Part shown: in pieces, positions 3,135-56,876 of the stretch
How the letters are laid out: each line of letters starts with the position of its first letter
How positions within the stretch are numbered: position 1 is the first letter of the stretch
Assembly: GCF_056746865.1 (NCBI RefSeq)
Contig: NZ_JBWKMP010000004.1
Strand: one strand, 5' to 3'
Source of the DNA: a plasmid
Length of the DNA: 64,000 bases
Program-made: the position numbers and the translations under genes
Notes under the pieces: generated by a model
Seen by the model: the letters and a program-made list of their open reading frames with translations, nothing else
The model's database searches: none
Told to the model about the DNA's origin: nothing

Positions 3135-3327
3135 ACATGGGGTTTGAGGGGCAACTGGATGAAAACGTACGATTTAGGGCACTAAAACCGCTGTTGTCCC
3201 ACCATTCTGGTGATTCCCAAACGTTATTTGGCTAAAAAGTAGTTTTGATGTGGTTTATTTTCCGAATTCCAAGCGCAGCCCTACTTTCTTGTGCGTATTT
3301 GCGTGTTTTGCGCAGTTTTGAAGTTCC

Positions 3328-19489: not shown

Positions 19490-22126
19490 CTACAACGGCA
19501 GGGAGAACGAGGCGGTTTCGAGCGATTCTCCCTCATTCAGCCTGTTCTGCATGTCGCTGACGAAGGCATCCATCTGACTGTTGGCAAAGAATTTAATCCC
19601 GACCAGCCTGACGTCCTCATTTTCATCAATCACAATGCGCTCCCTGTCATTCAGCGTTTCCAGCATCTGCTCTTTCCATGCGTCATCCAGCAGCCGGTCA
19701 TCCCCCTTTGGCTCAAGGAACACCTGCCAGTAAGTGTTGTCCGAATGGCGCGTCAGTATCATGATGAAATCCGGCATAAACCCGCGCACGCCGCCGAACT
19801 CCGTGAGTTTAAAGCGCGTTGACTGCTCGTCGTTACGCAGTACGTAAATGTCGTCGTAACGCGCTTTCAGCTTCGGCATGAATGCTTCCAGCGTTTTCAC
19901 AAGGCGATGCTCAAGCTGGTTCAGTATCGCGTTATCGTACACGTACCATTTTTTACCGATGGTCGGTGCGGTGGTGATTTTCTGGTTAATGACCACCGAC
20001 GGGTCAATGTGCAGGCTGTAGTCTTTAATCACCTCCTTCACCGGCTGGCTGATAAAGCGGTACGTGCCTTTCACCTTCTGGTCATTGCGGCGTATGTTCT
20101 CTGAGATGCGCAGCAGCACAGTTTCCAGCAGGTGCAGTTTCTCTTTTGCCGGTACAGAGGAGAAATCCAGTGACTGCGGTACGGTGACGGTGATTTTTAG
20201 CTTGCCAAGATAGGCGTCACTGCGAATAAACTCACGGATGCCGGTCAGTTTCGGGAAGAAGCGTTGCAGGTTATCCAGCGCGTAGAAGCTGATCCTCTGC
20301 ATCGCCTTGCGGTAAAAACGCTCGTCCAGTACCAGGGGTTCCGGTTTTGTTATGACTGCCGTTGCGCCCGTCAGGTTGTCCAGCGACTCCTCACCGGCGG
20401 TCTGATACGGTATCTCAAAGCGTGTTTCCAGCGAGTAGGTTTCCCAGCGCCGGCTGCTGCTCTCAATCTCTTCCACTTTGTTGAAATACAGCTTACCCGT
20501 CTGATAGACCGTGGATTTCTTGAAGTCTTCTTTCAGTCTGGCGTGTTCAATCGTGCCGCTGCCATCCTGATGCACGTCAATGTCCGCCTGCTCTAATGAT
20601 GCGTGCAGCGTTTTTATATAAGCTGGTTCATTGATGGTGTGATAGTGCAGTTGCTCCAGCACACTCAAATCTTTCGCGCTGTTATCAAACCGGCGGGTGA
20701 AGCTGCGCTTACCGTCATAAACGAACGGGTAGTAACGCGCACCACGCCCGATAAGCTGCGCCTCGCTGTCCGTGCCGGTTTTGCTGCTGCTCGCCTGCTC
20801 GCTGATGCGGACAATGTCGTAGAGGTTGAGCACGTCCCAGCCTTCGTTGACCTTCGCCACGGCAAAGACGGCTCTCACCGGATTATCGATGTTTTCCAGT
20901 GTGTTCAGCAGGACGGGGTTTTCTTCCAGCAGGTCTGACTTGTTGACGTTCAGCAGGTTGAAGTCGTTAAAGTCTTCCTGAATCTGTTGGATAACCGTCA
21001 CTAAATCGCTGTCAGCGTAACGCTGAATCACTTTGTGCCAGATACTGGTGTCAGAGCTGAGCTGTACTCTTTTGTTCGCCAGGTGGCGTCTGACGCTCTC
21101 AGGCGTCATTGCCGCAATCAGTTGCGAAAACTCCTCCTGCTTCGCCTTTGATATCGCAATCTTGTTCGACTTGAACAGAATGACCGGCTTGAAGCCGGTG
21201 ATGCCGTTATCTGCTGCTGTCAGTTTACGGTACTGGCTTAACAGTACCGCATCGAGCATCTTGTCACCGTCATTCTGGTTGGCTTCCAGCAGCATGACTT
21301 TCTTCGAATAGCCGTCTGACATGAACTGCTTCAGGTCATACTGATAAACCACTTTGTCACGGTATTTTTGCCCGATATCTTTATTTGCCAGGTCAATGGT
21401 GGCGGTGAACTCGAACAGCCGGTTATCCGGTCGCAGGTCGAGGATGTTCTCAATCGTGCGTTCCCAGGTCTGCTCCTCGTTCTCCGGTGAGGTTTTCGAC
21501 TTTCCTCTGGCTTTGGTGCCGGCGTTGAAGTGATGCGCCTCGTCACCAAGCAGCACAAGCGGAATTTCCTTCAAATCCTCGTAGGTGATGCTGTTCTCAC
21601 GATAGCTGTTCAGCTCATCGTGCATCTTATGGATGGTTGAGAGCTTAAGGTAAATCGTGTTGCGTTCCGGTACGGACGGGAACGTCTCCACCGGTGCGAT
21701 GGTGATTTTTTCCCCGTCGATTTCCAGCTCCTGACTGAACAGGTACTTCGGCGACTGCGGATTCAGCAGGTTCTCACGGGTTTTCTGGATAATCGCGTCG
21801 GTATGCACGAAGAAGATAAAATTCTGATACCCGTACTCTTTAAACAGATAGAGTATCGTCCCCGCCATCACCATCGTTTTCCCTGCACCGGTTGCCATGT
21901 GAAACAGCAGATGACGGTAATGCAGCAGCGCCTCTTCACGTTTACGCTGCGTGTAATGCAGGTAACGCAGTGCACCGTGCTGATACGGACGCAGGGCATC
22001 CTTCAGATTCGCCTGAATGTAGTCCGGCGTCTGGTAGTTATCGTGGAACAGCCCCGGTTCATCAAATTGCTTCAGCTTGTTAAACAGCAGCTTCTCGCTG
22101 CCGGCTGAGGTCGGTTTCTTCGCCAT
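19490..22126 (-). CDS. res: Type III restriction endonuclease subunit Res (SF2 helicase + nuclease)
   Basis: 878-aa ORF with Walker A (MATGAGKTMV), DEAH box (LLGDEAHH); 4 bp downstream of mod. Confidence 0.85.
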   Translation of the reverse strand: MAKKPTSAGSEKLLFNKLKQFDEPGLFHDNYQTPDYIQANLKDALRPYQHGALRYLHYTQRKREEALLHYRHLLFHMATGAGKTMVMAGTILYLFKEYGYQNFIFFVHTDAIIQKTRENLLNPQSPKYLFSQELEIDGEKITIAPVETFPSVPERNTIYLKLSTIHKMHDELNSYRENSITYEDLKEIPLVLLGDEAHHFNAGTKARGKSKTSPENEEQTWERTIENILDLRPDNRLFEFTATIDLANKDIGQKYRDKVVYQYDLKQFMSDGYSKKVMLLEANQNDGDKMLDAVLLSQYRKLTAADNGITGFKPVILFKSNKIAISKAKQEEFSQLIAAMTPESVRRHLANKRVQLSSDTSIWHKVIQRYADSDLVTVIQQIQEDFNDFNLLNVNKSDLLEENPVLLNTLENIDNPVRAVFAVAKVNEGWDVLNLYDIVRISEQASSSKTGTDSEAQLIGRGARYYPFVYDGKRSFTRRFDNSAKDLSVLEQLHYHTINEPAYIKTLHASLEQADIDVHQDGSGTIEHARLKEDFKKSTVYQTGKLYFNKVEEIESSSRRWETYSLETRFEIPYQTAGEESLDNLTGATAVITKPEPLVLDERFYRKAMQRISFYALDNLQRFFPKLTGIREFIRSDAYLGKLKITVTVPQSLDFSSVPAKEKLHLLETVLLRISENIRRNDQKVKGTYRFISQPVKEVIKDYSLHIDPSVVINQKITTAPTIGKKWYVYDNAILNQLEHRLVKTLEAFMPKLKARYDDIYVLRNDEQSTRFKLTEFGGVRGFMPDFIMILTRHSDNTYWQVFLEPKGDDRLLDDAWKEQMLETLNDRERIVIDENEDVRLVGIKFFANSQMDAFVSDMQNRLNEGESLETASFSLPL

Positions 22127-22130
22127 GCCG

Positions 22131-24179
22131 TCACTCCATTCCGTAGAAGCTGCGGGTAAAGGCTTTATCGCTCTCTGAAATGTTCAGGTCACTGTCATCC
22201 ATATCGGAAGCGTTCACATAGAGCTGATTTTTATCGAGGATTTCAATCAGCAGTTGCTTCTGCTCATGCAGTTCCAGTTCGCTGAAGGCGACTTTACGGA
22301 AAATACCATCCACTTCGTACTCAGCCGACAGCACGTTCTCCAGTGCCACCTGATAGTTGAGATGTGCCTCTGTTTTCATCACGGCAAAGAGCTTTTCGAG
22401 TTCTTCAGTGGACTGCGCTTTCTGTATTTCATGCACAAAGTAGGCGTTCAGCTCCATCAGTTCAGCGTAGACAAAGCTGCCGCCACCCTGCCAGTTGATG
22501 TCTTTTGAGATCCCCCCCTGTTCACCTCCGATGACTTTTTGCAGGCGTGGTACCGTTATGTCGTTGATGTAATCCATCTGTTCAATACCAATGTAGCGAC
22601 GCCCCATCTTATGGGCTACTGCTGCGGTTGTTCCGCTACCTAAATGAAAGTCTAAGATTAAATCGCCTGCCTTTGTAGATAGCTCTATGACCCTTTTAAT
22701 TAACAACTCTGGTTTCTTTCCGTTTTCGAAACTTACATATCCACCTTCTTTATTTAAATTGTTATATTGGATGTCATCCCATAAGGTATTTATTTTCTGC
22801 ATGTAGTTATAACTTTCACCATTTTTCTCCAGCATGTCGGATAGGAACATAAACATATCTTTATTGCTGGCGTTGTAGAATATTTCAACTGGCGTTCCTT
22901 TGTTTTTCCCTTTTAATGGTGTGTACTCTACGCTAACAATGCCATTATTTATTTCTTCTAGTTCTTTTAGAACTCGGCCTCTGACACTGGATTGTGCATT
23001 TGTTGTTCTATAAACAATCCCTGCATAGTCTTTATATACGTCGTTTTCACTTATGCCTTTTTCTTTTGAAAATCTAGATATGGAGGTGGTTTTGGCATAG
23101 GGGTAGTGATTGTAAGTAACTCCATCTTCACTTTTTATGGGCGTTTTTGCACCTAAATCTAAGAGTATTTGAGTGTATTTCCAGCTCTTACCGCTATCCT
23201 TGTATTCATTTACATACTGAATTACCTCTGTTTTTTTGAAAACAGGGTTAAGCATGGCAAGTTCTTTTCTTTTCGAATATAAAATTATAAATTCAGTTGC
23301 ATCTCTTAAGCTTTTTCCTTCCGAGCTTCCAGATACACCACCTATCTTTGTTTTTATTGTTATAATATTGATGAAGTTTTCTACACCAAATATGTTATCC
23401 ATTAACACCTTCAAATGGAATAACTCGTTATCATCACATTGTATAAAAATAAACCCATCATCTGATAATAATTTAAGTGATGTTTCAAGCCTATTTTTCA
23501 TGAATGTTAACCACGTGGAGTGGTTAAATCTATCATTATATTTAAAGCTATCGGAACCAGTGTTATATGGAGGGTCAATATATATTAACTTTACCTCGCC
23601 TTTATGGGGGGTTATTAATGAATTAAGGGCAATTAAGTTATTTCCTTTGATGATTAAATTATCACTTTGATCAAAGTAAGATATATTGTTTTGTGCACCA
23701 TTTTTTGTATGTCGTTTAACATTAGTGAATACCTTTGGAGAGAAAAGTCGATCAATCTCATCACGAGCAATGATTTCATTGTAATAAATCTCATCTTTCC
23801 CCTGATTTTCTTTGGTCATTCCGCCTTCAAGAACACAATCCTTAAAAGGAAAGTCCAGCACCACATCAGAGCTGTAATCAAGGTATTTCCCTTCACTGGT
23901 TAATCCCACCTTGTTCCGGTATTTAGTGAAGCTGTTCGCCCAGTATTCTTTGTATTTAAGAAATTTGCATAAATTATCAAAATCAAAAATAAAAATTCCG
24001 TCTATATCCGTACCGTAAACAGCGCGGATTTTTTCATTCGCCACCAATGCCTTGATAAGGTCTGGCTGCTTTTGACTGATAGCGTCACTCACCATTGAAC
24101 GTTGTAATTCCTCTCCGTTCCAGAACTGCGGGAATGCTTTTAAAACCTTGTTAAGTTCTTTTATTAATTCTGTCTGCAT
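22131..24179 (-). CDS. mod: Type III DNA methyltransferase subunit Mod
   Basis: 682-aa ORF with DPPYN motif (LIYIDPPYNTGSD) and C-terminal AdoMet motif (FHLGSGTTAAVA); strongly AT-rich central segment (likely target-recognition domain). Confidence 0.85.
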   Translation of the reverse strand: MQTELIKELNKVLKAFPQFWNGEELQRSMVSDAISQKQPDLIKALVANEKIRAVYGTDIDGIFIFDFDNLCKFLKYKEYWANSFTKYRNKVGLTSEGKYLDYSSDVVLDFPFKDCVLEGGMTKENQGKDEIYYNEIIARDEIDRLFSPKVFTNVKRHTKNGAQNNISYFDQSDNLIIKGNNLIALNSLITPHKGEVKLIYIDPPYNTGSDSFKYNDRFNHSTWLTFMKNRLETSLKLLSDDGFIFIQCDDNELFHLKVLMDNIFGVENFINIITIKTKIGGVSGSSEGKSLRDATEFIILYSKRKELAMLNPVFKKTEVIQYVNEYKDSGKSWKYTQILLDLGAKTPIKSEDGVTYNHYPYAKTTSISRFSKEKGISENDVYKDYAGIVYRTTNAQSSVRGRVLKELEEINNGIVSVEYTPLKGKNKGTPVEIFYNASNKDMFMFLSDMLEKNGESYNYMQKINTLWDDIQYNNLNKEGGYVSFENGKKPELLIKRVIELSTKAGDLILDFHLGSGTTAAVAHKMGRRYIGIEQMDYINDITVPRLQKVIGGEQGGISKDINWQGGGSFVYAELMELNAYFVHEIQKAQSTEELEKLFAVMKTEAHLNYQVALENVLSAEYEVDGIFRKVAFSELELHEQKQLLIEILDKNQLYVNASDMDDSDLNISESDKAFTRSFYGME

Positions 24180-24365
24180 GTCATGACCTTATGACTGTTT
24201 AATATCTGAATGATTGTAAGATATAGCGTCCGGCGCTGGAACCCGACAGCGATGAGTTGAATTCAGTTGCGGGAAAATGCACCAGAATAAGTGGTATTTA
24301 ACATAAACTCTCTTACGCGCACCACCCGAACACCACTCACCACGAAAACACGCCGGAACACGTAA

Positions 24366-24442
24366 AAGGGGTCCGTTTGGGAAACGGACAATATTGTACG
24401 GCAAGCCTGTTTTTTGAACAGGCCAAATCATCGCAGTAGGGT
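24366..24442. repeat. 77-bp hairpin-containing segment (copy X) upstream of mod
   Basis: AAGGGGTCCGTTTGGGAAACGGACAATATTGTACGGCAAGCCTGTTTTTTGAACAGG...; inverted copy at 26891-26966. Confidence 0.8.
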
Positions 24443-24631
24443 ACGCCCTTTGTAGGTGCCGTCTTCGATGTGAGAAAGAGCGTCCAGCGATACCAGGCCC
24501 GAGAACAGCGTGAACTGCCGCAATGAGCTTTTGTATGCGTGGGTAACTATACCGCGCACTTCACGCGCGGTGCTCGGTTTTGAGGCCGAAAATTGCAGGA
24601 TCTCAAAGACGTGGTGTAGGGCTAGTGCCAT
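24428..24631 (-). CDS. small hypothetical protein (67 aa)
   Basis: ORF with AAGGA 6 nt upstream of ATG; last gene downstream of the uncharacterised cluster; no recognisable motif. Confidence 0.3.
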   Translation of the reverse strand: MALALHHVFEILQFSASKPSTAREVRGIVTHAYKSSLRQFTLFSGLVSLDALSHIEDGTYKGRTLLR

Positions 24632-24673
24632 GGGGCGTCCTTAAAATAAAGCCCCATAGCATGAGCAGTGTCG

Positions 24674-25081
24674 TTAGTCGTTAAACTCGCCATCTCGCAG
24701 TTGGCGATTGCCTTCAACAATTTCCCACGCACGATTTAACCCTTCACGCATCAGATCGAAAGTACAGTCGCGGTCGTTAGAATAGGCGCCGACAAAAATG
24801 ATGTATTCCATTTCAGGTTCGCCGAACTCAGGCGAGCAGCCAAAGTTATGGAAAGCCGCCTGCCATTTGCCATTGTTCTCATTCGGCATGTGGAAAAGCT
24901 GCATTGGACGCTCATTAGGTGAGAATTCTACAAAGCTCGCTGAACTACCTGCGGATAAGCCTACTCTGGAATGCCCATCAAAAAAGTAATTATGGGCACA
25001 TCTGATACCTTCCACATAGATCACCCGCCCATCTGGCAGCTTTTTCAGGACCAGGTACACTTCACGACGCTGAATACTCAT
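24674..25081 (-). CDS. hypothetical cytoplasmic protein (135 aa)
   Basis: ORF with AGGAA RBS 5 nt upstream of ATG; no signal peptide; no family recognised. Confidence 0.5.
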   Translation of the reverse strand: MSIQRREVYLVLKKLPDGRVIYVEGIRCAHNYFFDGHSRVGLSAGSSASFVEFSPNERPMQLFHMPNENNGKWQAAFHNFGCSPEFGEPEMEYIIFVGAYSNDRDCTFDLMREGLNRAWEIVEGNRQLRDGEFND

Positions 25082-25152
25082 TTTTATTCCTGTAGTTATG
25101 GGTAGCAGTGGAGAGTAAGAATGACCCCAGCCGGTGCCAAGGCCAAAGAACT

Positions 25153-25695
25153 TTAGCCAGCCAGGGAAAGGGCTTCTGCGATGGCTCGGTTGAACTCGGG
25201 GATCGCCTCATCGTAAGACATTCCGCCGCAGGGATGCTTGACGCAAGCCCATGTTACCGGCAGTTCCGGTAAGTGATCCCACATCTGATAGCCCAACACC
25301 AAAATGACATCGGGCCTCAGCTCGGCCACCACTTCTTCAAGCACAGTAGCTGCATCACGCCACATAGCACGCGTGGGACGTATACGGCCAGCATCGCCCA
25401 CAAACTCCTGAACGTAGTTGTAGAAGGCTACATGCTGCCAGGCTTCACGCCGTTCCTCTGCGGTCGGCTCGTCAGTTGTGCCTCGTAGCAGATTGGTGGC
25501 TATCGTGAAAAAACGAAGCCCTGGCTGGAAAGCATGCTCGTTAATAACGTGCTGGGTAAAGTCAGGGGCGTAGTCTTCCGGTTCACCATAGTGGGACTCA
25601 CCCAACACCATAACGCGGACGCCGTAGCGGCTTGAGTGATAATGGTCACCCACCCAAGGCTGAAATTTCACGCTGGAATTAGTTGCTGTTTGCAT
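25153..25695 (-). CDS. hypothetical protein with uracil-DNA-glycosylase-superfamily-like motifs (180 aa)
   Basis: N-terminal VMVLGESHYGEP resembles the UDG water-activating loop (GQDPYH) and C-terminal VKHPCGGMS resembles the HPSPLS motif; start overlaps upstream gene by 17 bp. Confidence 0.45.
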   Translation of the reverse strand: MQTATNSSVKFQPWVGDHYHSSRYGVRVMVLGESHYGEPEDYAPDFTQHVINEHAFQPGLRFFTIATNLLRGTTDEPTAEERREAWQHVAFYNYVQEFVGDAGRIRPTRAMWRDAATVLEEVVAELRPDVILVLGYQMWDHLPELPVTWACVKHPCGGMSYDEAIPEFNRAIAEALSLAG

Positions 25696-26128
25696 ACGTT
25701 ACATTCTCACACTTTGCATCACTGATGGGCATGGACGCATTATAAATATCCTCAAGTGCCAACGTTACCTCGCTTTTGCGCAAGATGGCGTCCCGCAGCA
25801 TCGTCAATCGGAAGTTAGAGCCTTTCCAGTAATACTCTTTGTACTTGTCATCTGCGACGAAACCGCCTTCTCGATGGCGTTCATACACGATAGGTGGCAT
25901 GCCCCCTTTGTCGGACGGGTGAAGCTCCAGCCAACGCTCATATTTTCCGTTCTCGTAGATTGTCAGCCGCTGCGCTGGGTCGGTCAACTTACCCCCGTCC
26001 AGCACCCACCGGCACATCATTGACGCTATTTCTTTTGCTGCGGGATCTATGGTTGATGGGGTGCCAGCATTAGCCTGGTAGGCCATAAGAAACGCCGCGG
26101 ACATAATGAGTGTGTGGCGTAGTTTCAT
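25679..26128 (-). CDS. hypothetical exported protein (149 aa, Sec signal peptide)
   Basis: N-terminus MKLRHTLIMSAAFLMAYQANA; AAGGGA RBS; 10 bp after upstream lipoprotein gene. Confidence 0.55.
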   Translation of the reverse strand: MKLRHTLIMSAAFLMAYQANAGTPSTIDPAAKEIASMMCRWVLDGGKLTDPAQRLTIYENGKYERWLELHPSDKGGMPPIVYERHREGGFVADDKYKEYYWKGSNFRLTMLRDAILRKSEVTLALEDIYNASMPISDAKCENVTYANSN

Positions 26129-26138
26129 GAGAGATCCC

Positions 26139-26678
26139 TTAGTTCAGATTGCATCCAATGCGGAAGGCATTGCCGATTTCAGTGTATTCAGCACGGCTTG
26201 CGCCCGTGAGCTTAGTGGCTTCACTGCTGAAGTGCGTATTGTCGCGGGTGCATTTTTCTGGCGTGGATTGCGCGCCTTTGAGGCACATAGAGTACGCAAC
26301 AGACGGATTAGCGAACTGGGTACGCTGGGCGTAGCCTTCGCACACAGCAGTTGCACGGGCCTGCTTCTGGCGCGCGGTCATCGGTTTGATTGCCTTACTA
26401 TTGGCAGCCTTCAGCTTATAGCAGCTCAGATTACGCGAGCGGGCAGCTGCCTCTAGGGCTTTTGAGCGGCTAAGATTGTCGTTGTATTCAGGATGGCTGG
26501 ATGGGTTAACATTCAGGCTCGGCTGTATCGCGTCAGATGCCTGGCAAAGTTGCTGATCGCTGTATCTGGCAATCTCCGCTGCCTCTATCGCGGCTTTGTC
26601 TGGATGCGGGGCTTTGGGTGCGGGAGTAGCGCATCCTGCTAATGCCAGCGCCAATGAGGCGGCTAATAGTCGTTTCAT
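26139..26678 (-). CDS. hypothetical lipoprotein (179 aa, lipobox LAGC, multiple Cys)
   Basis: MKRLLAASLALALAGCATPA... signal with lipobox; several cysteines suggesting periplasmic disulfides. Confidence 0.55.
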   Translation of the reverse strand: MKRLLAASLALALAGCATPAPKAPHPDKAAIEAAEIARYSDQQLCQASDAIQPSLNVNPSSHPEYNDNLSRSKALEAAARSRNLSCYKLKAANSKAIKPMTARQKQARATAVCEGYAQRTQFANPSVAYSMCLKGAQSTPEKCTRDNTHFSSEATKLTGASRAEYTEIGNAFRIGCNLN

Positions 26679-26890
26679 GGGTTCGAGTGCCCTGTATGCA
26701 AGTTGTAGAAGGGATCAGTTTAGAGATCGGAAATTATTGTACGTTCAGCGCGGTATTTAACCACTAATACCCGTAACGGATTGATTTAGAGCCAGTGGCT
26801 ATCGCTTTTAAATTATCGCCTAATCAGTATCGCATTTAGGTTATCCGATTAGCCAAAAACCGCGGAAAACGTCGTATAGCGCGGGAGTTC

Positions 26891-26966
26891 ACCCTACTGC
26901 GATGATTTCGACTGTTCAAAAAACAGGCTTACCGTACAATATTGTCCGTTTCCCAAACGGCCCCTT
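26891..26966. repeat. inverted copy (X') of the 77-bp hairpin segment
   Basis: reverse complement of 24366-24442 with a few mismatches. Confidence 0.8.
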
Positions 26967-27040
26967 AAATCTTCTCCGCTCCAAAATTGCGGAAACGCTT
27001 TTAAAACCTTGTTCAGTTCTTTGATTAATTCGGTCTGCAT
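26966..27040 (-). pseudogene. partial duplicate of mod 5' end (first ~22 codons) with diverged copy of mod promoter region upstream (27041-27240)
   Basis: encodes MQTELIKELNKVLKAFPQFW identical to Mod N-terminus, then fuses to X'-derived sequence (48-codon frame 26894-27040); upstream 200 bp is ~80% identical to 24180-24365. Confidence 0.7.
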
Positions 27041-27325
27041 GTCATGGCCTTATGACTGTTAGAGATTGAAATGATTGTAAGGTATCGCGTCCAATGCTGG
27101 AACCTGACAGTAATGCTGCTGATACAATTGCGGAAAAATGCACCAAAACAGGTGGTATTTAACATAAGGGATCTTACGCGCACCACCGATCAGGTACTCA
27201 CGACGAAAACACGTCAAAACGCGCAAAACAGCCTGTTTTCTGCCCCCAAAATTGGCTGTTTTTGTGTTGCCGGTTTGTTATCAAAACGACGGATATGATT
27301 TCAGCCAGCAAACGGGCTGAAACCT

Positions 27326-27775
27326 CTATTTTTTCCAGAATTTCCATGATTTTTTCACCATCGGCTGCGTGACAGGTTCTGGTGTTGCCGGTAGCTTGGA
27401 CTCTATCAGTAACAGGGCTTGCTTGAGATCCTCGTTGCGCTTGTCTTTTTCAGCGAGTAGGAGTTCTTTTTCACGCAGCAATGCCTTTACGAGTTCTATT
27501 TCAGCTTTTAAAGCATAGTTTTCATGCAGCAAATTCTGGTCAGTTAACTGTACGGATTCTCCTGCCAAACTCTGCACAGTGCTGCCTGATTGTTCACTGC
27601 CAAGTTGCTGACCAGTAAATGATCCGAAAACACGCAGAAGCTCTGATGTATCTAGCTTTGAAGAACCACTGCTATCTGTGCACTTGGTCAGTTTTCCCTG
27701 CTTAATGTATGACTGCACTGTTGTGCGACTTTTTCCTGTCAGTCTTGCGGCTTCGCTGATTGATACCAGTGCCAT
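27326..27775 (-). CDS. hypothetical HTH DNA-binding protein with C-terminal coiled coil (149 aa)
   Basis: N-terminal SISEAARLTGKSRTTVQSYIKQGKL helix-turn-helix-like; function unknown. Confidence 0.45.
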   Translation of the reverse strand: MALVSISEAARLTGKSRTTVQSYIKQGKLTKCTDSSGSSKLDTSELLRVFGSFTGQQLGSEQSGSTVQSLAGESVQLTDQNLLHENYALKAEIELVKALLREKELLLAEKDKRNEDLKQALLLIESKLPATPEPVTQPMVKKSWKFWKK

Positions 27776-27782
27776 AGATACC

Positions 27783-28022
27783 TCAGAACCGTCCGTATTT
27801 AGCTAAAATTTTCTCTAGCGTGGCTCGTTGTTTTTGGGTCAGCCATGTAAATGAGTCGTTGAGATCGTGCTTGCTTTGCATATCGCTTAGAAATTTAGCC
27901 TCAAAGCTAGTGAGCTGGATTTTTGCGGTCAGTGCATCGTGTAGTGTCTTTTTAAGACCGTTATGCAATTGACTGTCTTGCGTGCTGTTTGTCACCGGAA
28001 TGGGCGTTCTTGTTGTTTTTTC
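27783..28022 (-). pseudogene. 3' end of an unidentified gene truncated by IS26
   Basis: frame runs into the IS26 IR at 28023 without a start codon; ends ...QKQRATLEKILAKYGRF. Confidence 0.35.
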
Positions 28023-28842
28023 GGCACTGTTGCAAATAGTCGGTGGTGATAAACTTATCATCCCCTTTTGCTGATGGAGCTGCACATGAACCCATTCAAA
28101 GGCCGGCATTTTCAGCGTGACATCATTCTGTGGGCCGTACGCTGGTACTGCAAATACGGCATCAGTTACCGTGAGCTGCAGGAGATGCTGGCTGAACGCG
28201 GAGTGAATGTCGATCACTCCACGATTTACCGCTGGGTTCAGCGTTATGCGCCTGAAATGGAAAAACGGCTGCGCTGGTACTGGCGTAACCCTTCCGATCT
28301 TTGCCCGTGGCACATGGATGAAACCTACGTGAAGGTCAATGGCCGCTGGGCGTATCTGTACCGGGCCGTCGACAGCCGGGGCCGCACTGTCGATTTTTAT
28401 CTCTCCTCCCGTCGTAACAGCAAAGCTGCATACCGGTTTCTGGGTAAAATCCTCAACAACGTGAAGAAGTGGCAGATCCCGCGATTCATCAACACGGATA
28501 AAGCGCCCGCCTATGGTCGCGCGCTTGCTCTGCTCAAACGCGAAGGCCGGTGCCCGTCTGACGTTGAACACCGACAGATTAAGTACCGGAACAACGTGAT
28601 TGAATGCGATCATGGCAAACTGAAACGGATAATCGGCGCCACGCTGGGATTTAAATCCATGAAGACGGCTTACGCCACCATCAAAGGTATTGAGGTGATG
28701 CGTGCACTACGCAAAGGCCAGGCCTCAGCATTTTATTATGGTGATCCCCTGGGCGAAATGCGCCTGGTAAGCAGAGTTTTTGAAATGTAAGGCCTTTGAA
28801 TAAGACAAAAGGCTGCCTCATCGCTAACTTTGCAACAGTGCC
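28023..28842 (+). mobile_element. IS26 (copy 2)
   Basis: 820 bp with GGCACTGTTGCAAA IRs. Confidence 0.95.
28086..28790 (+). CDS. tnpA: IS26 transposase Tnp26
   Basis: 234-aa [10 protein letters not shown]... Confidence 0.95.
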   Translation: MNPFKGRHFQRDIILWAVRWYCKYGISYRELQEMLAERGVNVDHSTIYRWVQRYAPEMEKRLRWYWRNPSDLCPWHMDETYVKVNGRWAYLYRAVDSRGRTVDFYLSSRRNSKAAYRFLGKILNNVKKWQIPRFINTDKAPAYGRALALLKREGRCPSDVEHRQIKYRNNVIECDHGKLKRIIGATLGFKSMKTAYATIKGIEVMRALRKGQASAFYYGDPLGEMRLVSRVFEM

Positions 28843-29270
28843 GTAAAGGCGGCCTTATCCACCATTTCCCGAACAAGCAGGCGCTAATATTCGCCCTGTT
28901 CGCGCGTCTGCTGGCAATCATGGAAGAAGCGATTACCGCGCTGATGCAACAGGATGGCGTGAGCTATGGCCGGTTTACCCGCGCCTATCTGAACTATCTG
29001 GCGGATCTCACGGACACCCATGAAAGCCGCCAGCTTATGGTTTTGTCGCTGGCAATGCCCGATGAACCGGTGCTGCGCAAATGCTGGCGCGACTGGATGC
29101 TGGAGAAACTGGCGCAGGGCGATGAGCTGGATAACAGCCCAACCGGCACGCTGGTGCGCTACGCCGCTGACGGCATCTGGCTTTCGGAGTTGACGGAAGG
29201 GATCACCATGAGCGCCGACCACCGTCGCGCGCTGGTTGACTCCCTGAATAAAATGACGCTTCCCGCGTGA
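28843..29270 (+). pseudogene. TetR-family regulator, 5'-truncated (delta-orf3 of the fosA3 module)
   Basis: C-terminal portion of a TetR-like frame beginning at the IS26 boundary. Confidence 0.5.
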
Positions 29271-29289
29271 AGCACAGACTGAGGCCGCG

Positions 29290-30078
29290 ATGCGCTACAA
29301 CATCAATGCCCGTTTTATCTACGACGCCACCGACGGAACCCTGACGCTGCCGCAAAGCGATGAACCGGACAGCCAGCTATCCCTCACCGCCAGCGCCCTG
29401 TTTAACTATTTTCTGCGCCATACCGAGATTGTCAGCCGGGAAGATGTTCTGAAAAAAGTCTGGGATGACAATGGATTAACCTCATCCAACAGCAATCTGA
29501 ATCAGTATCTCAGCATGCTGCGGAAGACCTTTCGCCATTACGGCGTCGATAACATCATCGTCACCGTCTCGCGCGGCTATTTGCAGCTTAATCCCGAGGT
29601 CATTATCGAAGCGCTGGACGACGCGCCGCCGGTTTCACCACAACAGACGCCTGCCGAACCGCCGCCCGTTACGACAACGCCAGACGCACCGCGCTCCGCA
29701 CATGCTCGCGGGATGTGCTGGTACATGGCCGGAGCCTGCTTGCTCACCATTGCCCTGCTTCTGGTTGCCTTCAGTCTGGTCGGCATCAGTGAATCCCAGC
29801 CTATCGCGCTGACCCGCCTCAGCCATAGCCAGTGCGAACTGCTGGCCAGCGATGAAATGCGACGTTCGGTCAGTGAAGAGTCCTACGGCAAAAACTTCGA
29901 TGAGGTACGCCAGCGGCTGAATATTGCCTGTAAACCCGGTGAACGTTTTCTTTTCTTCTACGGCGATCGGCTCGAAACCAACGGGCTGGGGCGCGTGTTC
30001 CTTGCCCACTGCGCCATGCATGAAGATAACCCGTTCAGCTATTGCGATAACTACTTTTACTACTCCTGGAAGCCGTAA
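29290..30078 (+). CDS. CadC/OmpR-type winged-helix transcriptional regulator (orf2 of fosA3 module)
   Basis: 262-aa ORF; N-terminal winged-helix-like region, C-terminal TM segment. Confidence 0.55.
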   Translation: MRYNINARFIYDATDGTLTLPQSDEPDSQLSLTASALFNYFLRHTEIVSREDVLKKVWDDNGLTSSNSNLNQYLSMLRKTFRHYGVDNIIVTVSRGYLQLNPEVIIEALDDAPPVSPQQTPAEPPPVTTTPDAPRSAHARGMCWYMAGACLLTIALLLVAFSLVGISESQPIALTRLSHSQCELLASDEMRRSVSEESYGKNFDEVRQRLNIACKPGERFLFFYGDRLETNGLGRVFLAHCAMHEDNPFSYCDNYFYYSWKP

Positions 30079-30596
30079 TGAGACTCGCGCCGCGTCCGTT
30101 CTTTGCCCTCTGCGTTCTGGTATTTATTGCCGCCGCCGCGTTTAGCGCCTGGCGGCTGCTGCCTGCCGACAACGCGGGTGTCATGAGCTGTTCCACTAAG
30201 GGCATCATGCGCTTTGAGAACATGGACAAAGAGAACGTTAACGGCAATATTCACTTCAATTTTGGCGCGCAGGGTAAAGGCTCGATGGTGGTCGAAGGTT
30301 ACACCGACTCCGCCGCCGGCTGGCTCTACCTGCAACGCTACGTGAAGTTTACCTACAGCAGCAAACGCATCTCGGCCACCGAGCGTCATTACCGCATCAA
30401 TCAGTGGGAATCGAGCGCCTCCTCGATTGATGAATCGCCGAACGTGATTTTCGACTACTTTATGCGCGAGATGTCCGACAGCCACGACGGGCTGTTTCTC
30501 AACGCTCAGAAGCTCAACGAAAAGGCTATCTTGCTCAGCTCTATCAATTCACCGCTGTGGATCTGCACGTTGAAATCCGGCAGTAAGCTGAACTAA
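30078..30596 (+). CDS. hypothetical membrane-anchored protein (orf1 of fosA3 module)
   Basis: 172-aa ORF with N-terminal TM helix. Confidence 0.5.
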   Translation: MRLAPRPFFALCVLVFIAAAAFSAWRLLPADNAGVMSCSTKGIMRFENMDKENVNGNIHFNFGAQGKGSMVVEGYTDSAAGWLYLQRYVKFTYSSKRISATERHYRINQWESSASSIDESPNVIFDYFMREMSDSHDGLFLNAQKLNEKAILLSSINSPLWICTLKSGSKLN

Positions 30597-30600
30597 CCCG

Positions 30601-31017
30601 TCAATCAAAAAAGACCATCCCCTTGTAGGGGCGTTCGCGACAGGCGGCCAGCCGCTGCGCCAGATTCCCCACATGCAGCTCCAGCTTATGGCCGTCAGGG
30701 TCGAGAAAATAGTAAGACGCCCCTTCACTGCGGTTATCTTTCCATACCTCAGCCCCCGCCTGCGCCAGCAGAGCCACCACCCCGGCAAACTCTTCTTCCG
30801 CCACGCTGAAGGCGTAGTGGGTATAGTCGCTTTCCTGAGGGGGCGTTTTACGCCGCTGCTCATCCAGCGACAAGCACAGCCACAGCGCCCCACAGGAGAG
30901 ATAGGCTCCGCTATCCCAGCTGGCGTGCAGGCGCATTCCAGGTAACTGCTGATAAAATGCCAGGCTTGACGCCAGATCGCTGACCGCCAGCGTCAGATGA
31001 TTCAATCCCTGCAGCAT
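30601..31017 (-). CDS. fosA3: fosfomycin thiol transferase FosA3
   Basis: 138-aa [49 protein letters not shown]... matches FosA3 from memory. Confidence 0.9.
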
Positions 31018-31339
31018 GACTTTTCCTCCCGTTATCAAACCCTGTTGTAAACTGTGATCGGCGACGCATCCCCTCCCGGCCTCACCTCATCACCGGCTAA
31101 AAAGCGCATTTTTTGCGTTTAGCCTGCCATCGGAAACCTGCGCCTCGCCACACTAATCCCCGCTCTATGTTACCCCTTTTTTGAAATCATTTAGCAATCC
31201 AATAACATTTCATCCCCCCGGAAAAAGCGGGCTAAAAATCGCCTTATTGAAGACCAAATCAGCACCGACATTACAGCATAAAGACATAAATAAACGCCCT
31301 AAAAAGACTAAATCACAGAGCTATATCCTAAATAATTAC

Positions 31340-32900
<1,561 letters not shown>

Positions 32901-33158
32901 CTGTCAGACCAAGTTTACTCATACTGAAATAATTGGGGGGTGATTACCACCGTAAATTTTTCCCAGACGGTAAAAAGAATTACAGACTTTTATCAACTAA
33001 AAAAGTGGCCTGAATATCAGCACTACCGTCAATACCATTTCAGTAAATCAGGATAGGGAAAAATTGGCAAACCCAGTTCTTCACTTGCTCTGCGGGTTCT
33101 GTCACCCTGACGTCATACGGTAATCCCCCCCAATTCATTAATCGACAAGGTCATCCTG

Positions 33159-34926: not shown

Positions 34927-35746
34927 GGCACTGTTGCAAAGTTAGCGATGAGGCAGCCTTTTGTCTTATTCAAAGGCCTTACATTTCAAAAACTCTGCTT
35001 ACCAGGCGCATTTCGCCCAGGGGATCACCATAATAAAATGCTGAGGCCTGGCCTTTGCGTAGTGCACGCATCACCTCAATACCTTTGATGGTGGCGTAAG
35101 CCGTCTTCATGGATTTAAATCCCAGCGTGGCGCCGATTATCCGTTTCAGTTTGCCATGATCGCATTCAATCACGTTGTTCCGGTACTTAATCTGTCGGTG
35201 TTCAACGTCAGACGGGCACCGGCCTTCGCGTTTGAGCAGAGCAAGCGCGCGACCATAGGCGGGCGCTTTATCCGTGTTGATGAATCGCGGGATCTGCCAC
35301 TTCTTCACGTTGTTGAGGATTTTACCCAGAAACCGGTATGCAGCTTTGCTGTTACGACGGGAGGAGAGATAAAAATCGACAGTGCGGCCCCGGCTGTCGA
35401 CGGCCCGGTACAGATACGCCCAGCGGCCATTGACCTTCACGTAGGTTTCATCCATGTGCCACGGGCAAAGATCGGAAGGGTTACGCCAGTACCAGCGCAG
35501 CCGTTTTTCCATTTCAGGCGCATAACGCTGAACCCAGCGGTAAATCGTGGAGTGATCGACATTCACTCCGCGTTCAGCCAGCATCTCCTGCAGCTCACGG
35601 TAACTGATGCCGTATTTGCAGTACCAGCGTACGGCCCACAGAATGATGTCACGCTGAAAATGCCGGCCTTTGAATGGGTTCATGTGCAGCTCCATCAGCA
35701 AAAGGGGATGATAAGTTTATCACCACCGACTATTTGCAACAGTGCC
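34927..35746 (-). mobile_element. IS26 (copy 4)
   Basis: 820 bp with IS26 IRs. Confidence 0.95.
34979..35683 (-). CDS. tnpA: IS26 transposase Tnp26
   Basis: 234-aa [10 protein letters not shown]... Confidence 0.95.
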
Positions 35747-35829
35747 TCTCAAAATCGGTGGAGCTGCATGACAAAGTCATCGGGCATTATCTGAACATAA
35801 AACACTATCAATAAGTTGGAGTCATTACC
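35747..35829 (+). mobile_element. IS1, 3' terminal 83 bp (end of insB + IRR)
   Basis: TCTCAAAATCGGTGGAGCTGCATGACAAAGTCATCGGGCATTATCTGAACATAAAACACTATCAATAAGTTGGAGTCATTACC matches IS1 right end. Confidence 0.8.
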
Positions 35830-36330
35830 AAACAGGGATTATTTATTCTCTCAGGCGAGAATAAAATAGACGAAGAATGTTTCATTAATATAGTCCAAAC
35901 GGCTGTCGCCATAAATAACATCGGTAGAGAATCTAATGGTTATATTTTAGTTGGTGTTTCCGATACCAAAGCTACGGCAGACAGAGTTAAGACTTTATAT
36001 GGTGTTACCCCTATTGAGTGCAATGGCTATTATATCAATGGAATTGATCATGAAGCTGTAATTCAATCAAAAAACATAGATAATTACTTTCTGTTCATAA
36101 AACAAAAAATAGAATCATTTAATTTTAATGAGGCTTTGAAACAACAAATACTAAAAGATATTTCATTATGTTCATATGAAGGACTGCATGTTTTAAAAAT
36201 CGAAATAAAAAGTGTCGGAGAAGTCTGTCATTTTGAAAATAGGTATTATATAAGACAAGGAACAGCTACGCATTTAATCACTGACGGTGAAGCAATTAGT
36301 AGTTTACACAGATTATATTACTCATAATTA
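35813..36330 (+). pseudogene. fragment of a gene encoding an AlbA_2/Schlafen-like (divergent AAA) domain protein, N-terminally truncated at the IS1 end
   Basis: open frame with no ATG until late; motif NGYILVGVSDTKATADRV resembles the GGxLxxGVxDxG core of AlbA_2 domains; AT-rich. Confidence 0.3.
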
Positions 36331-37371
36331 CTTAAGCACTATGAAGGTATCATACACCTTCATAGTGTACTTTTTTACTGCGCTTTGGGGCTAAATTGTT
36401 TTTGTGAATAGCCAGAATATCGTGGCTACGGCGGCAATGGAAATATATGATCTCTGCTGCCAGAGACTGGAGATGTAATTGGGGGCAGTTTGGATATCGA
36501 AAATTATTGTACTATAAGGGGTCCGCTTGAGGGGGCCGCTTGGAAAACGGAAATTTTCCCACGCTAAGAGAATTGAGTTGAACGAGTGGTTACATCTAGG
36601 CCAGCTAACTCACTGAACGTAAAGGCTGTACGAAATGTTCCGACCGTCCGATAACCATTTGGCTTACTTCCGTACATTTCCTTGCGTAGATGTACAGAAT
36701 TGTACGATTTCGGACACCAAAACTGCTGTTGTCCCGGTGCATGAAGCTACTTTCCGGGTTGGTGGTACTGACTTTGGTGTTCTTAACGACGACGTTTTCA
36801 ACTCTGAAAATCGCCTCTCTGCACGGGGATTTTTACCCCCCCATAGAGCCGTCATATAAATTCAAATTATTAACTTTGATGGTAGAATTATCTTAGGTTT
36901 GATAAAATTTTGAGCCGTCGCCGTTTACTTCACAGGATTCAATATAATGGCTAAATATACAGTTTGTGATTACCAATAAACTATTAGAAATAATGGGAAT
37001 GGTTGTGCCAATCTCTATCTGGAGGTCTTATTGCAGGGAACATCCACCCCATCGTTACACCAATACAGAATTGCCCCCGATACAAGACATCCAGACATTA
37101 ACCTAATAAAAGCGCACCTTGACGAGGGCTTTCAGCAGGCAAAGTCTGAGGGATTAAAAGTAGAGATTTCAGATTATAAAGAACGTCTTTACCTGTACAT
37201 TAGAACACCTGGTAATAACCTAATGCAATATTCTGGTTGCAGAGAAAAATAATACAGTCGCGCTGGATACGCTGACATTGACGCAGTTATATGATTTTCT
37301 GGCGTTGGTCAGTAAACCAGCTGCAGCCAAAACGGTGTAGTCCCTGACACAGGCGCCGGTCATTCTGTTAA

Positions 37372-38028: not shown

Positions 38029-38382
38029 TTAATTTATTAGCTTCATCGCATTTTTTTTGGTCTCTTCATCACTTTTTTGCTCTTGTTGTGAAGAGGATTG
38101 AGTGACTATTGAAGAATTAAAATCGGCCATCTCTTTTGGAAATAGCGATCTCAATATATTCACGATATCTGAAAATGTGGTTTCTTTCGTCAGCAGCTCA
38201 CATAAAAGGAAAGGGGTCCGGGGATCTTGTCTGTATAAGGCCAGACCTGCCGTCAGTGCGGCCCGGTTAAGGCGGCTTCGTTCCCCTTGCGGGATACTGT
38301 CCAGTGTATCACAAACAATTTTATCTGTTTGATTTACATCTGGATTTAGTTTGAAGGCAATGGTTCTGCGCTTGTCCATCAT
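38029..38382 (-). CDS. parR: plasmid partition adaptor ParR (StbB)
   Basis: 117-aa [46 protein letters not shown]... ; directly after parM. Confidence 0.85.
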   Translation of the reverse strand: MMDKRRTIAFKLNPDVNQTDKIVCDTLDSIPQGERSRLNRAALTAGLALYRQDPRTPFLLCELLTKETTFSDIVNILRSLFPKEMADFNSSIVTQSSSQQEQKSDEETKKNAMKLIN

Positions 38383-39344: not shown

Positions 39345-39535
39345 TTATAAAACTCCTTATGGTGTTTTTTTGGTGTGTGTTTGGGTATGTTTTGGGTTTT
39401 AAGTGGGTTTGTTTGTCAAGTTTACCCCATTTCAACCATCAATCAATGATTATTTGTCTTGTTTTGGTGTTTTATTGGGTTGGGTATGGGTTGTTTTTGG
39501 GTTTTGTTTGGCGGGTAACAAAAGATGTCGCCGGG
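39345..39535 (-). promoter_or_regulatory. parC: parC centromere/promoter region with short direct repeats
   Basis: GT-rich reiterated motifs (GTTTTGGGTTTT, GGGTTGGGTATGGGTTGTTTTTGGGTTTTG) immediately upstream of parM. Confidence 0.5.
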
Positions 39536-44345: not shown

Positions 44346-44578
44346 TGTTCTTTAAAAATCAGGATTTATTTCAGGCTCCGGCAATACGCATTTATTTGTT
44401 CTGTCAGTCATCCGGCTGGCAGGTAATGAGAACGCAGGAACAGAAGGAGGAAAACACCGGAGAACGTCAGACGCAGATATGAAAAAAGCAGGCCGGGGAG
44501 GACCTGCTTAATCCACACCGCAAAAACTGTTCGAGCAGTTTCTGCGGTTCCATTCAACAGTCATAAGGAGTTTCATTT

Positions 44579-44809
44579 ATGACGGTAAGTATTGTTTCAC
44601 CTTCCGCAGCGGCTGTAAAGCCCCGCCGTCATCCCCGTTTCAGACGCGAAGACATCCCCGCGCCGGAAATTGACCCCGTGCTGAAAGCCTTCGGGCGACA
44701 CATTGCCCGGAGTTTTCACCGGGGACGTGGTGTACACATCCCCGCCATGAAAAATACGGCTTTCGGGCAGGTGCTCCGCACACTCGAACTGAAACGCGCT
44801 TTTAACTGA
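44579..44809 (+). CDS. hypothetical protein (76 aa)
   Basis: ORF downstream of repeat copy 1. Confidence 0.4.
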   Translation: MTVSIVSPSAAAVKPRRHPRFRREDIPAPEIDPVLKAFGRHIARSFHRGRGVHIPAMKNTAFGQVLRTLELKRAFN

Positions 44810-51814: not shown

Positions 51815-52035
51815 TGCGGCAACAATCACACAGATTACCCGTAAACAGCCTGAATGAGCGGGTTATTTTCAGGAAAAGTGAGTGTGGTCAGCGTGCAGGT
51901 ATATGGGCTATGATGTGCCCGGCGCTTGAGGCTTTCTGCCTCATGACGTGAAGGTGGTTTGTTACCGTGTTGTGTGGCAGAAAGAAGATAGCCCCGTAGT
52001 AAGTTAATTTTCATTAACCACCACGAGGCATCCCT

Positions 52036-52248
52036 ATGTCTAGTCCACATCAGGATAGCCTCTTACCGCGCTTTGCGCAAGGAGAAGAAGGCCATGAAAC
52101 TACCACGAAGTTCCCTTGTCTGGTGTGTGTTGATCGTGTGTCTCACACTGTTGATATTCACTTATCTGACACGAAAATCGCTGTGCGAGATTCGTTACAG
52201 AGACGGACACAGGGAGGTGGCGGCTTTCATGGCTTACGAATCCGGTAA
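52036..52248 (+). CDS. mok: Mok-like reading frame overlapping hok (translational coupling element)
   Basis: 70-aa frame overlapping the hok ORF in another frame, as in hok/sok-type loci. Confidence 0.45.
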
Positions 52249-55999: not shown

Positions 56000-56189
56000 A
56001 TGAAAATGAAGTTTGAGTTGGTTCAAATATAAGAATTTTTATGATTCAAAAAGATGACAATACGTCAGATAATTAGTATATTAATTACGTGGTTAATGCC
56101 ACGTTAAAAATTGAAACTGAAAATCGCCGATGCAGGGAGGTCTGAACTCCCTGCATCGACTGTCCATAGAATCCTTAACGGAGGTTCCT

Positions 56190-56876
56190 ATGTGTGCGCT
56201 GGATCGTAGAGAAAGGCCACTTAACAGTCAATCTGTAAATAAGTACATCCTTAACGTTCAGAATATCTACAGAAATTCTCCCGTTCCGGTTTGTGTCCGT
56301 AACAAAAACCGGAAAATCCTTTATGCCAATGGGGCTTTTATTGAACTCTTTTCCAGAGAAGATAAACCCTTATCCGGAGAGAGTTATATACGTCTGCAGG
56401 TTGAAATTTTTCTTTCATCACTTGAACTGGAATGCCAGGCTCTTGGACATGGCTCTGCATTTTGTCGTCGTTTTAATTTTCATGGCGAAATCTATCAGAT
56501 AAGGATGGAGAATGTTTCTTTTTATAATGACGAATCTGTTGTTTTATGGCAAATTAATCCGTTTCCTGATTATCCATTTTTTGCGTTAAGTCAGAGTGGA
56601 AGTAATACAAATACTTCTGATAAATTAACGATATGGAATGATCTTTCCCCCGGGACATTGCTTGTTTTCTCTTTTTATATGCTGGGTGTTGGTCATGCAA
56701 CAATTGCCAGAGAATTGGGTATTACAGACAGAGCATCTGAGGATCGAATTAAACCAGTTAAACGGAAAATAAAAGAATTTTTTGAACACTTTGATTTATT
56801 CAGAGTGTCATGTATCTATAAAGGGAAAATAGATTTGCTATTAAATATAATTCGTGAATTTTATAGCGTTAAGTAA
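56190..56876 (+). CDS. traJ: transfer activator TraJ
   Basis: track ORF 56130-56876; probable start at MCALDRR (56190); position between traM and traY. Confidence 0.75.

Follow-up and report, generated by a model that had tools for sequence, protein, structure and literature searches.

The sequence that the region near 36.5 kb shares with both edges of the cargo segment at 24368-26964, in the window (the whole 64,000-nt stretch of plasmid DNA analysed here), very probably consists of 38-bp terminal inverted repeats (IRs) of the Tn3 transposon family and of their miniature derivatives, i.e., TIMEs of the MITESen1 type, all of them present as relics. Judged by sequence, the ends can be assigned to the MITESen1 clade and to a related clade of Tn3-family transposase recognition ends. 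They are a known kind of element, and what is found here is ordinary transposon debris, not a new recombination site or operator. Their value is one of annotation, and the understanding of how such elements work is left unchanged: pipelines that look for genes miss 38-bp ends and miniature elements of this kind, which nevertheless account for the breakpoints in this mosaic F33:A-:B-/IncX1 resistance plasmid. Modestly new are a divergent MITESen1 variant in a non-resistance TIME-COMP-like unit, an apparently unnamed TIME of 286 bp, and fossil IRs in the R100 backbone.

Full-length 38-bp units underlie the similarity

The sequence-only reading had noticed that a region at 36487-36560 resembles both edges of the cargo, and this similarity is real. 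In Smith-Waterman alignments of 36470-36570 with 24350-24450, 26700-26760 and the reverse complement of 26900-26980, the scores were 31, 39 and 32, against means of 14-15 and maxima of 21-27 for dinucleotide shuffles; none of the 500 shuffles reached the observed values (z = 7.1, 12.8 and 6.7), which refutes a chance match. The strings quoted in that reading are all present, although CAGTTTGG... starts at 36486, one base away from the start given for it. In a repeat search, 24358-24399, 26701-26742 and 36471-36512 formed one 42-nt family with 71-100% identity, and 36469-36518 paired with 26928-26977 as an inverted repeat. The 11-mer AATTATTGTAC taken alone is weakly significant (3 matches at no more than one mismatch versus 0.74 expected), and the signal is that of the full 38-bp units rather than of this 11-mer. 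The units are referred to here as IRa (24368-24405, plus strand), IRb (26928-26964, minus strand, with a 1-nt deletion), IRc (26711-26748, plus strand), IRd (36481-36518, plus strand) and IRe (36531-36568, plus strand).

The same picture emerges when the whole window is scanned with ten Tn3-type IRs: 11 of its 38-mers agree with at least one of them at 24 or more of 38 positions, compared with 0-4 in shuffled windows. The scan recovers the known ends (Tn3 with 38/38 at 3801, a Tn5393-like IR at 11672 and a Tn21-type IR split by IS5075 at 14704/16031) and, beyond them, the motif copies and one pair at 3139-3281. An Rfam scan of the whole window found no family at the site, and a literature search for the IR strings returned irrelevant primer matches only.

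In the Tn3 family, TnpA binds the inner part of the IR and nicks the DNA at the GGGG tip on its outside; the replicative transposition that follows duplicates, as a rule, 5 bp of the target. The copies in the window have the features of such ends, i.e., a length of about 38 bp, a GGGG tip and an inner ...ACGnTAAG terminus (IRc being degenerate), as well as homology to the IRs of elements that encode a DDE_Tnp_Tn3 protein (37/38 and 35/38 for IRd, 35/38 for IRe). A target-site duplication of 5 bp (rarely 6 bp), on the other hand, was found at none of the non-autonomous copies examined. This absence weakens the evidence for recent transposition and leaves the sequence identity unaffected, since MITESen1 structures lacking direct repeats have been published and explained by recombination that took place between copies afterwards (PMC13367494, Fig. 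S4).

Stacked solo ends in the R100 backbone

The window is colinear with the F33:A-:B- IncFII plasmid pECB11 (NZ_KY865321.1), with repA at position 1, as judged by the identical coordinates of matched segments and by the annotated genes. In this IncFII backbone, IS26 (34979-35683) is followed by an IS1 remnant (35747-35830), the 3' part of a DUF262 gene, a terminator, the IR cluster at 36481-36568, a degenerate yacAB-like region, parR (38029-38379) and parM. The cluster occupies intergenic DNA just downstream of the intrinsic terminator (36336-36368, plus strand; a 13-pair stem and then a T-run) of the DUF262 gene, which is truncated by IS1 here and intact in plasmid p1_035123. It comprises three items, namely IRd, a 13-nt IR stub and IRe, all in the same orientation with the GGGG tip at the left.

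IRd (GGGGGCAGTTTGGATATCGAAAATTATTGTACTATAAG) is a solo IR running GGGGG...TATAAG, and the position of its outer tip leads one to expect the interior of the element to the right. It agrees at 37 of 38 positions with the left IR of the transposon that pPS00262_4A.2 (locus L013) carries in complete form, at 35 with the tnpA-end IR of an IncHI2 Salmonella plasmid (locus L011) and at 33 with the IRL of MITESen1; in this last case the Smith-Waterman alignment covers the 38 nt of the IR exactly, neither more nor less (z = 15.8, 0/500 shuffles). Its alignments with IRc (30/38) and IRa (27/38) likewise extend over the full 38 nt. The last 6-8 nt of the IRd region (36513-36520, TATAAGGG) recur as the left terminus of an IS110-family element in L013 and in a further plasmid locus (L018), which suggests that IRd may once have hosted that element, eight identical nucleotides being no proof of it. 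This would resemble the habit of the IS4321/IS5075-type IS110-family elements, which target Tn21-family IRs: IS5075 splits the Tn21-type IR at 14704/16031 in this same window, and a related IS sits in the IR of the transposon in L013 and L018. Unlike in those cases, only 8 nt of an IS end remain at 36513-36520, so that an IS origin is suggestive.

The stub at 36518-36530 (plus strand, GGGGTCCGCTTGA) is the outer fragment of a second IR type, matching both the tnpA-end IR of pUUH239.2 (locus L009) and the IR of the 286-bp element described below (TIME286) at 12/13, and its first G(s) are common to the end of IRd. IRe (GGGGGCCGCTTGGAAAACGGAAATTTTCCCACGCTAAG), which forms the left end of a truncated copy of that miniature element, has the canonical GGGG...ACGCTAAG ends and reads GGGGG...CACGCTAAG. 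It matches 35/38 positions of the IR that adjoins a truncated tnpA of the Tn3 family in pUUH239.2, the same number of the left IR of the 286-bp element in locus L007, and 27/38 of IRa. What had been taken for two halves of a single site, separated to opposite ends of the cargo, are therefore two complete and adjacent 38-bp IRs, each of which is homologous along its whole length.

Rightward of 36569 and up to 42000, IRd and IRe have chance-level matches only and no inverted partner, so the stretch 36481-36568 holds solo ends and falls outside the definition of a TIME, which includes an inverted IR pair. A complete cognate tnpA is absent from the window, where Tn3-family tnpA occurs only as fragments at 16079-17842 and 3858-4391. 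With neither a partner IR nor a complete cognate transposase, these ends are best taken as inert relics that could be moved only in trans. Probably, two or three Tn3-family elements inserted here one after another, in head-to-tail arrangement, and only their left ends have survived; nested insertion at 36.5 kb would then have been followed by truncation and by the loss of the right ends.

Classical R100 (NC_002134.1, 22543-22923) contains 36380-36760 at 100% identity, and 936 PLSDB records cover at least 80% of it; the classical R100 backbone carries fossil ends of at least two Tn3-family lineages, and IRd-like sequences are frequent in plasmids. Could such solo IRs be retained because they are useful, either by protecting the plasmid in cis from cognate Tn3-family transposons (target immunity) or by offering a landing pad to further Tn3-family elements and to IS110 elements that target IRs? 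That a single IR confers immunity is established for Tn3 and Tn4430. Full conservation from R100 to modern F33 plasmids over these 936 records is what such a role would predict, as is the density of at least three Tn3-type ends within 50 bp, to which a fourth (Tn1721-type) is added in p1_035123. However, clonal descent of the backbone explains the conservation equally well, immunity requires the cognate TnpA, and the immunity and hot-spot versions of the idea are mutually opposed, all of which makes a retained function improbable next to the reading as relics.

Autonomous relatives of the ends

The transposon in pPS00262_4A.2 (L013, 4006-12271) is complete, with 8.3 kb, inverted IRs, tnpA, tnpR, frmRAB and a perfect 5-bp duplication (TATTA/TATTA), the only target duplication seen among the copies examined. 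Its left IR is interrupted by the IS110-family element at GTAC^GTTAAG, the point at which a related IS is found in L018. In the IncHI2 Salmonella plasmid (L011), the 3' end of a full-length Tn3-family tnpA runs into the IR GGGGTCAGTTTGGATATCGAAAATTATTGTACGTTAAG; the product of this gene contains PF01526 (DDE_Tnp_Tn3, E = 5e-148) and DUF4158, and the product of the neighbouring gene has a Resolvase domain. This IR, from a truncated copy of the frm-type transposon, matches each of the two MITESen1 IRs at 35/38. The frm-type transposon is, on these sequence comparisons, the most likely autonomous source of TnpA for the ends in the window: it shares its 38-bp IRs with them (to IRd, 37/38 in L013 and 35/38 in L011) and differs in having a transposase, a resolvase and the TATTA duplication, whereas the copies in the window lack genes and duplications alike.

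The cargo unit and its MITESen1-like ends

Transposon ends delimit the segment of five genes that precedes the type III methylase gene. It lies in an IncX1-derived fragment (18863-28061) with MobX, a type III res/mod pair, hypothetical genes and an HTH gene, a block that is also present in an IncX1 plasmid. The unit itself (24368-26964) has 2,597 bp and is TIME-COMP-like, being composed of a MITESen1 end fragment, five ORFs and an inverted, complete MITESen1-like copy, with its outermost IRs inverted. The five ORFs are all on the minus strand and matched no Pfam family.

The complete copy (26711-26964, minus strand) has 254 bp, with IRb corresponding to the IRL and IRc to the IRR of MITESen1 (34/38 for IRc). 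A global alignment with the 256-bp MITESen1 of ISfinder, whose sequence was taken from Table S2 of PMC13367494, runs end to end with 205/257 identical positions (80%). The copy contains no ORF of note between its inverted IRc and IRb, in agreement with the definition of a TIME (<500 bp, non-coding, no transposase). Matches to this 254-bp element occur in 3564 plasmid records of PLSDB, of which 1607 cover 80% or more of the element, mostly at 70-82% identity, in replicons ranging from Col plasmids of 2.5 kb to megaplasmids of 378 kb. At the left boundary of the cargo, IRa and the following 36 nt make up a 74-nt left-end fragment of a MITESen1-type TIME (24368-24441, plus strand), 95% complementary to 26891-26964; IRa matches the MITESen1 IRL at 28/38 and the pUUH239.2 IR at 30/38. 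The ends of IRa and IRb read GGGG...ACGG(C/T)AAG, with IRa finishing in CAAG and not in TAAG, and those of IRc read GGGA...GTTCAG, the GGGA tip being degenerate.

MITESen1 is reported to have been first described by Pong and Hall in 2021, on an IncX1 plasmid. It is a published TIME, first found on such a plasmid, that forms TIME-COMPs flanked by 5-bp direct repeats (PMC13367494). The likeness to the window is considerable: one copy matches over its full length with both IRs placed, 28-34 of 38 positions agree between its IRL or IRR and each of IRd, IRa, IRb and IRc, the surrounding segment is IncX1-derived as for the type element, and the structure resembles a TIME-COMP with a second (partial) copy, its lack of direct repeats being shared with several published structures. 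There are differences too, since the window copy is 80% identical, as opposed to the threshold of at least 95% used by Gomi and Yano 2026 (PMC13367494), the left copy is reduced to 74 nt, and the cargo consists of five ORFs with no Pfam match and no resistance gene. Furthermore, the IRL variant of the window has an 8-bp hairpin (GTCCGTTT/AAACGGAC), unlike the type element. The hairpin had been noted at 24368, and in DNA folding only the IRa/IRb variant forms it (z = -4.4), while IRc, IRd and IRe do not, which means that the structure is not the conserved feature.

On sequence grounds, the 2.6-kb unit has the architecture of a TIME-COMP, i.e., two TIMEs around passenger DNA, with one of the copies cut to 74 nt. 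It recurs at 97.9% in a different context in the IncN plasmid pUWI-F31.1, between a 5' fragment of a resolvase gene and a 3' fragment of a Tn3-family tnpA, and the match ends at the IR tips. More than 1000 plasmids have the MITESen1 part on its own, but full-length copies of the five cargo genes were found only inside the intact unit. The nucleotides around the 2.6-kb unit do not match as direct repeats (TAAAA/TTAAA in the window, TATCA/TAAAT in pUWI-F31.1), and no 5-bp duplication surrounds the 254-bp TIME (TAGAA/TTAAA) or the MITESen1-like copy in pMB3435_3.

The unit is flanked by two 263-bp direct repeats, A (24105-24367) and B (26966-27228), which are 82% identical and contain the start of the mod gene (its first 25 codons) with the upstream, promoter-proximal region. 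A and B cease to be homologous precisely at the GGGG tips of IRa and IRb, and each flank can thus serve as an uninterrupted comparator for the junction of the other. NZ_CP103297.1, which has no 2.6-kb unit, was considered as the empty site of a transposition event and discarded, being an exact single-crossover recombinant between A and B, as expected of homologous deletion or integration. The composition of the repeats brings to mind the CUP repeats of IncN plasmids, which are repeated promoter modules that contain ArdK sites and extend into the first codons of the genes downstream (PMC5371602). Nevertheless, the four motif regions compared by blastn (word size 7) with the CUP regulon of R46 (R46 20000-33000) gave chance matches of 10-15 nt (best E = 0.16), and A and B are a duplicated gene start and not the motif studied here, which leaves this origin with practically no weight.

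A regulatory role had also been raised, in the form of a shared operator. Under such a reading, the motif containing AATTATTGTAC would be an operator or promoter bound by a plasmid regulator (e.g., the HTH protein encoded at 27326-27775) and controlling both the lipoprotein operon and genes of the R100 backbone. The location of IRc, 23 nt upstream of the ATG at 26678, and the minus-strand TACAAT, which resembles a -10 box, speak in favour of this. However, a consensus promoter scan found no site in 26600-27300 and, in 36300-37000, two sites that are both outside the motifs (none inside 36481-36568), the terminator scan of both regions placed none inside the motifs, and no regulator was found associated with them. 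Moreover, each copy of the motif belongs to a 38-bp GGGG...TAAG unit that sits at the tip of a transposon, as is the case across thousands of unrelated plasmids, and distance and orientation to genes vary inconsistently from copy to copy. An operator is thus very unlikely, and the motif copies are better regarded as transposon ends.

If a cognate TnpA were supplied in trans, the 2.6-kb unit delimited by IRa and IRb might still be mobilisable. A more ambitious combination, in which the unit would be a mobilisable TIME-COMP moving a five-gene module of lipoproteins and secreted proteins between IncX1 and IncN plasmids and, at the same time, 36481-36568 would be a recurrent landing pad or immunity determinant, is rather unlikely to hold in both its parts, although it would be compatible with the sequences.

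The 286-bp element and a 143-bp hybrid

IRe begins the left 206 nt (36531-36736) of a 286-bp TIME-like element, whose interior (positions 39-206) corresponds to 36569-36736 on the plus strand with about 97% identity to 4001-4206 of L007; the homology ends at 36736, beyond which the sequences are unrelated, and the right IR is missing. The further AGAATTGTACGA that the sequence-only reading had placed at 36696-36707 is indeed there, and lies inside this miniature element. IRe and the interior recur as a 286-bp element bounded by IRs in four further unrelated plasmid contexts, and in blastn comparisons only the IRs are common to this element and IMU, TIME244 and MITESen1. It appears, from these comparisons, to be a separate and apparently unnamed TIME carried by many plasmids of Enterobacterales. 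Duplications of 5 bp were absent at the four 286-bp elements examined, in four different contexts.

The pair revealed by the window scan beside pemK is a hybrid miniature element of 143 bp (3139-3281), with an IS101/Tn1000-like IR at 3139-3176 (plus strand; 29/38 to Tn1000) and a right IR of the TIME286 type at 3244-3281 (minus strand; 34/38 to the TIME286 IRR). Its nucleotides 29-143 are 88% identical to positions 172-286 of TIME286. The integration of a DUF262 circle at a 286-bp element split in this way (TIME286 1-206 at 36531-36736 and 172-286 at 3167-3281) is unsupported: the empty-site query, a chimera of 3060-3201 and 36737-36900, was negative, with 0 plasmid records at 80% coverage or more and none spanning the junction. 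Short non-coding cores between 38-bp Tn3-type IRs are also the structure of IS101, IMU, TIME244 and TIME1-4 (PMC4133298; PMC13367494), for which mosaic or hybrid copies comparable to the 143-bp element occur.

Breakpoints between related plasmids

Among related plasmids, the homology to the window stops at several points around the IR cluster. In p1_035123 it ends at 36509, inside IRd, where GGGGAGCCCGCAGAATTCGGAAAAAATCGTACGCTAAG starts, and this start is a Tn1721-type 38-bp IR adjoining tet(A). In pSB4816, the end of an IS26 abuts 36467. The sequence of pRHB10-C04_2 from 36531 on is the left part of the 286-bp element with inverted 38-bp GGGG...TAAG/CAAG repeats, so that homology breaks at 36531 where the element's own IR has its tip, and an IS66-family element is found upstream. 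The inter-plasmid breakpoints examined are ends of mobile elements or IRs, and it is IR ends that account for the stops at 36509 and 36531.

These stops bear on the idea that 36487-36550 is an attB-like site whose halves, as attL and attR, mark the cargo edges and are used by an integrase or by XerCD. Similar short sequences at both edges of the cargo and breaks of plasmid homology near the site (36467, 36509 and 36531) would fit it, but each of the breaks has the origin just described and each supposed half is a whole 38-bp unit that aligns over its full length. In addition, no integrase or recombinase gene is adjacent, and the closest homologues are ends of DDE transposons, located beside a tnpA with PF01526. 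As for the arms of the XerC-XerD sites dif, cer and psi, a by-eye comparison with their consensus sequences found only GTACAA and AAAC ends in common, and the Tn7 TnsB-site reading was discarded together with the XerCD one on the basis of equally trivial end matches. Site-specific recombination at an att site is, with this, extremely unlikely. The part of that proposal that survives is that sequences used in recombination mark the edges of mobile segments; its att logic gives way to DDE transposition of the Tn3-family type.

It can also be observed that the abutment of a Tn1721-type IR inside IRd and the insertion of an IS110-family element into this type of IR are behaviours typical of Tn3-family IRs.

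Tn3-family ends near 36.5 kb and the TIME286 element

In p1_035123 (L006 4679-4717), a Tn1721-type 38-bp inverted repeat (IR) meets the backbone within IRd, the solo Tn3-family IR of the window (36481-36518), at window position 36509/36510. Counting this Tn1721-type IR, the adjoining stub (36518-36530) and IRe (36531-36568), no fewer than three or four ends of Tn3-family type lie within ~50 bp, which makes this stretch a possible hot spot for insertion.

IRe is the left end of TIME286, an IR-bounded miniature element of 286 bp whose left 206 nt are found at 36531-36736. IR-bounded copies are present in four plasmid loci (L007, L015, L016 and L017), in IncI-gamma/K1, ColV-type IncF, Shigella IncF and IS66-adjacent settings, with a 5-bp duplication around none of the four. 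TIME286 has only its IRs in common with IMU, TIME244 and MITESen1 and does not seem to be any of the named TIMEs. Directly after pemK, at 3139-3281, there is a 143-bp miniature element combining an IS101/Tn1000-like left IR with a TIME286-type right IR; the right 115 nt of the 143-bp element match TIME286 positions 172-286. The DUF262 gene region is flanked in the ancestral backbone by both TIME286 parts (the 143-bp element and 36531-36736).

IS elements inserted in Tn3-family IRs

The IR of the frm-transposon (tnpA-tnpR-frmRAB) is interrupted by an IS110-family element (transposase WP_001572362.1) at GTAC^GTTAAG, at the identical position in two plasmids (L013 4044-5398; L018 5040-6407), resembling IS4321/IS5075 in Tn21-type IRs. 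The first 8 nt of this element, TATAAGGG, are identical to the bases following IRd position 32 (window 36513-36520). The window itself holds a classic IR-targeting insertion of this kind, namely IS5075 (14981-15985) inside a Tn21-type 38-bp IR that is left in two pieces (14704-14725 and 16047-16068); the tnpA fragment adjoining this split IR (16079-17842, minus strand) shows 63% identity to the frm-transposon TnpA.

The 2.6-kb unit and its flanking repeats

The IR-bounded 2.6-kb unit of the window (24368-26964) has a second occurrence in the IncN plasmid pUWI-F31.1 (CP066261.1, 6001-8598), with a resolvase-gene 5' fragment on one side and a Tn3-family tnpA 3' fragment on the other. Its right IR is a canonical MITESen1 IRL there, whereas it is a hairpin variant in the window. 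The five cargo ORFs (24428-26678, minus strand, 67-180 aa) have no Pfam match, and the N-termini of two are lipoprotein- or signal-peptide-like.

The unit is flanked by two copies of a segment made up of the start of the mod gene and the DNA upstream of it (263-bp repeats A and B, 24105-24367 and 26966-27228, 82% identity), the second copy giving a 48-codon ORF (26894-27040) fused into IRb, the right IR. The sister plasmid NZ_CP103297.1 (L019 2990-3400), without the unit, is an exact A x B single-crossover recombinant, the crossover falling inside a 16-nt stretch common to both repeats. The event can be read in either direction, as a deletion or as the integration of a circle.

Other IncF backbone features

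The DNA separating parM from the following gene contains GT-rich short direct repeats (family D3, 39351-39515), which probably represent the iterons of the parC centromere. Gathering-level Rfam matches to the AS-pc01 antisense RNA (44483-44584), the sok antitoxin RNA (51920-52096) and the FinP/traJ 5' UTR (56087-56196) are usual IncF features.
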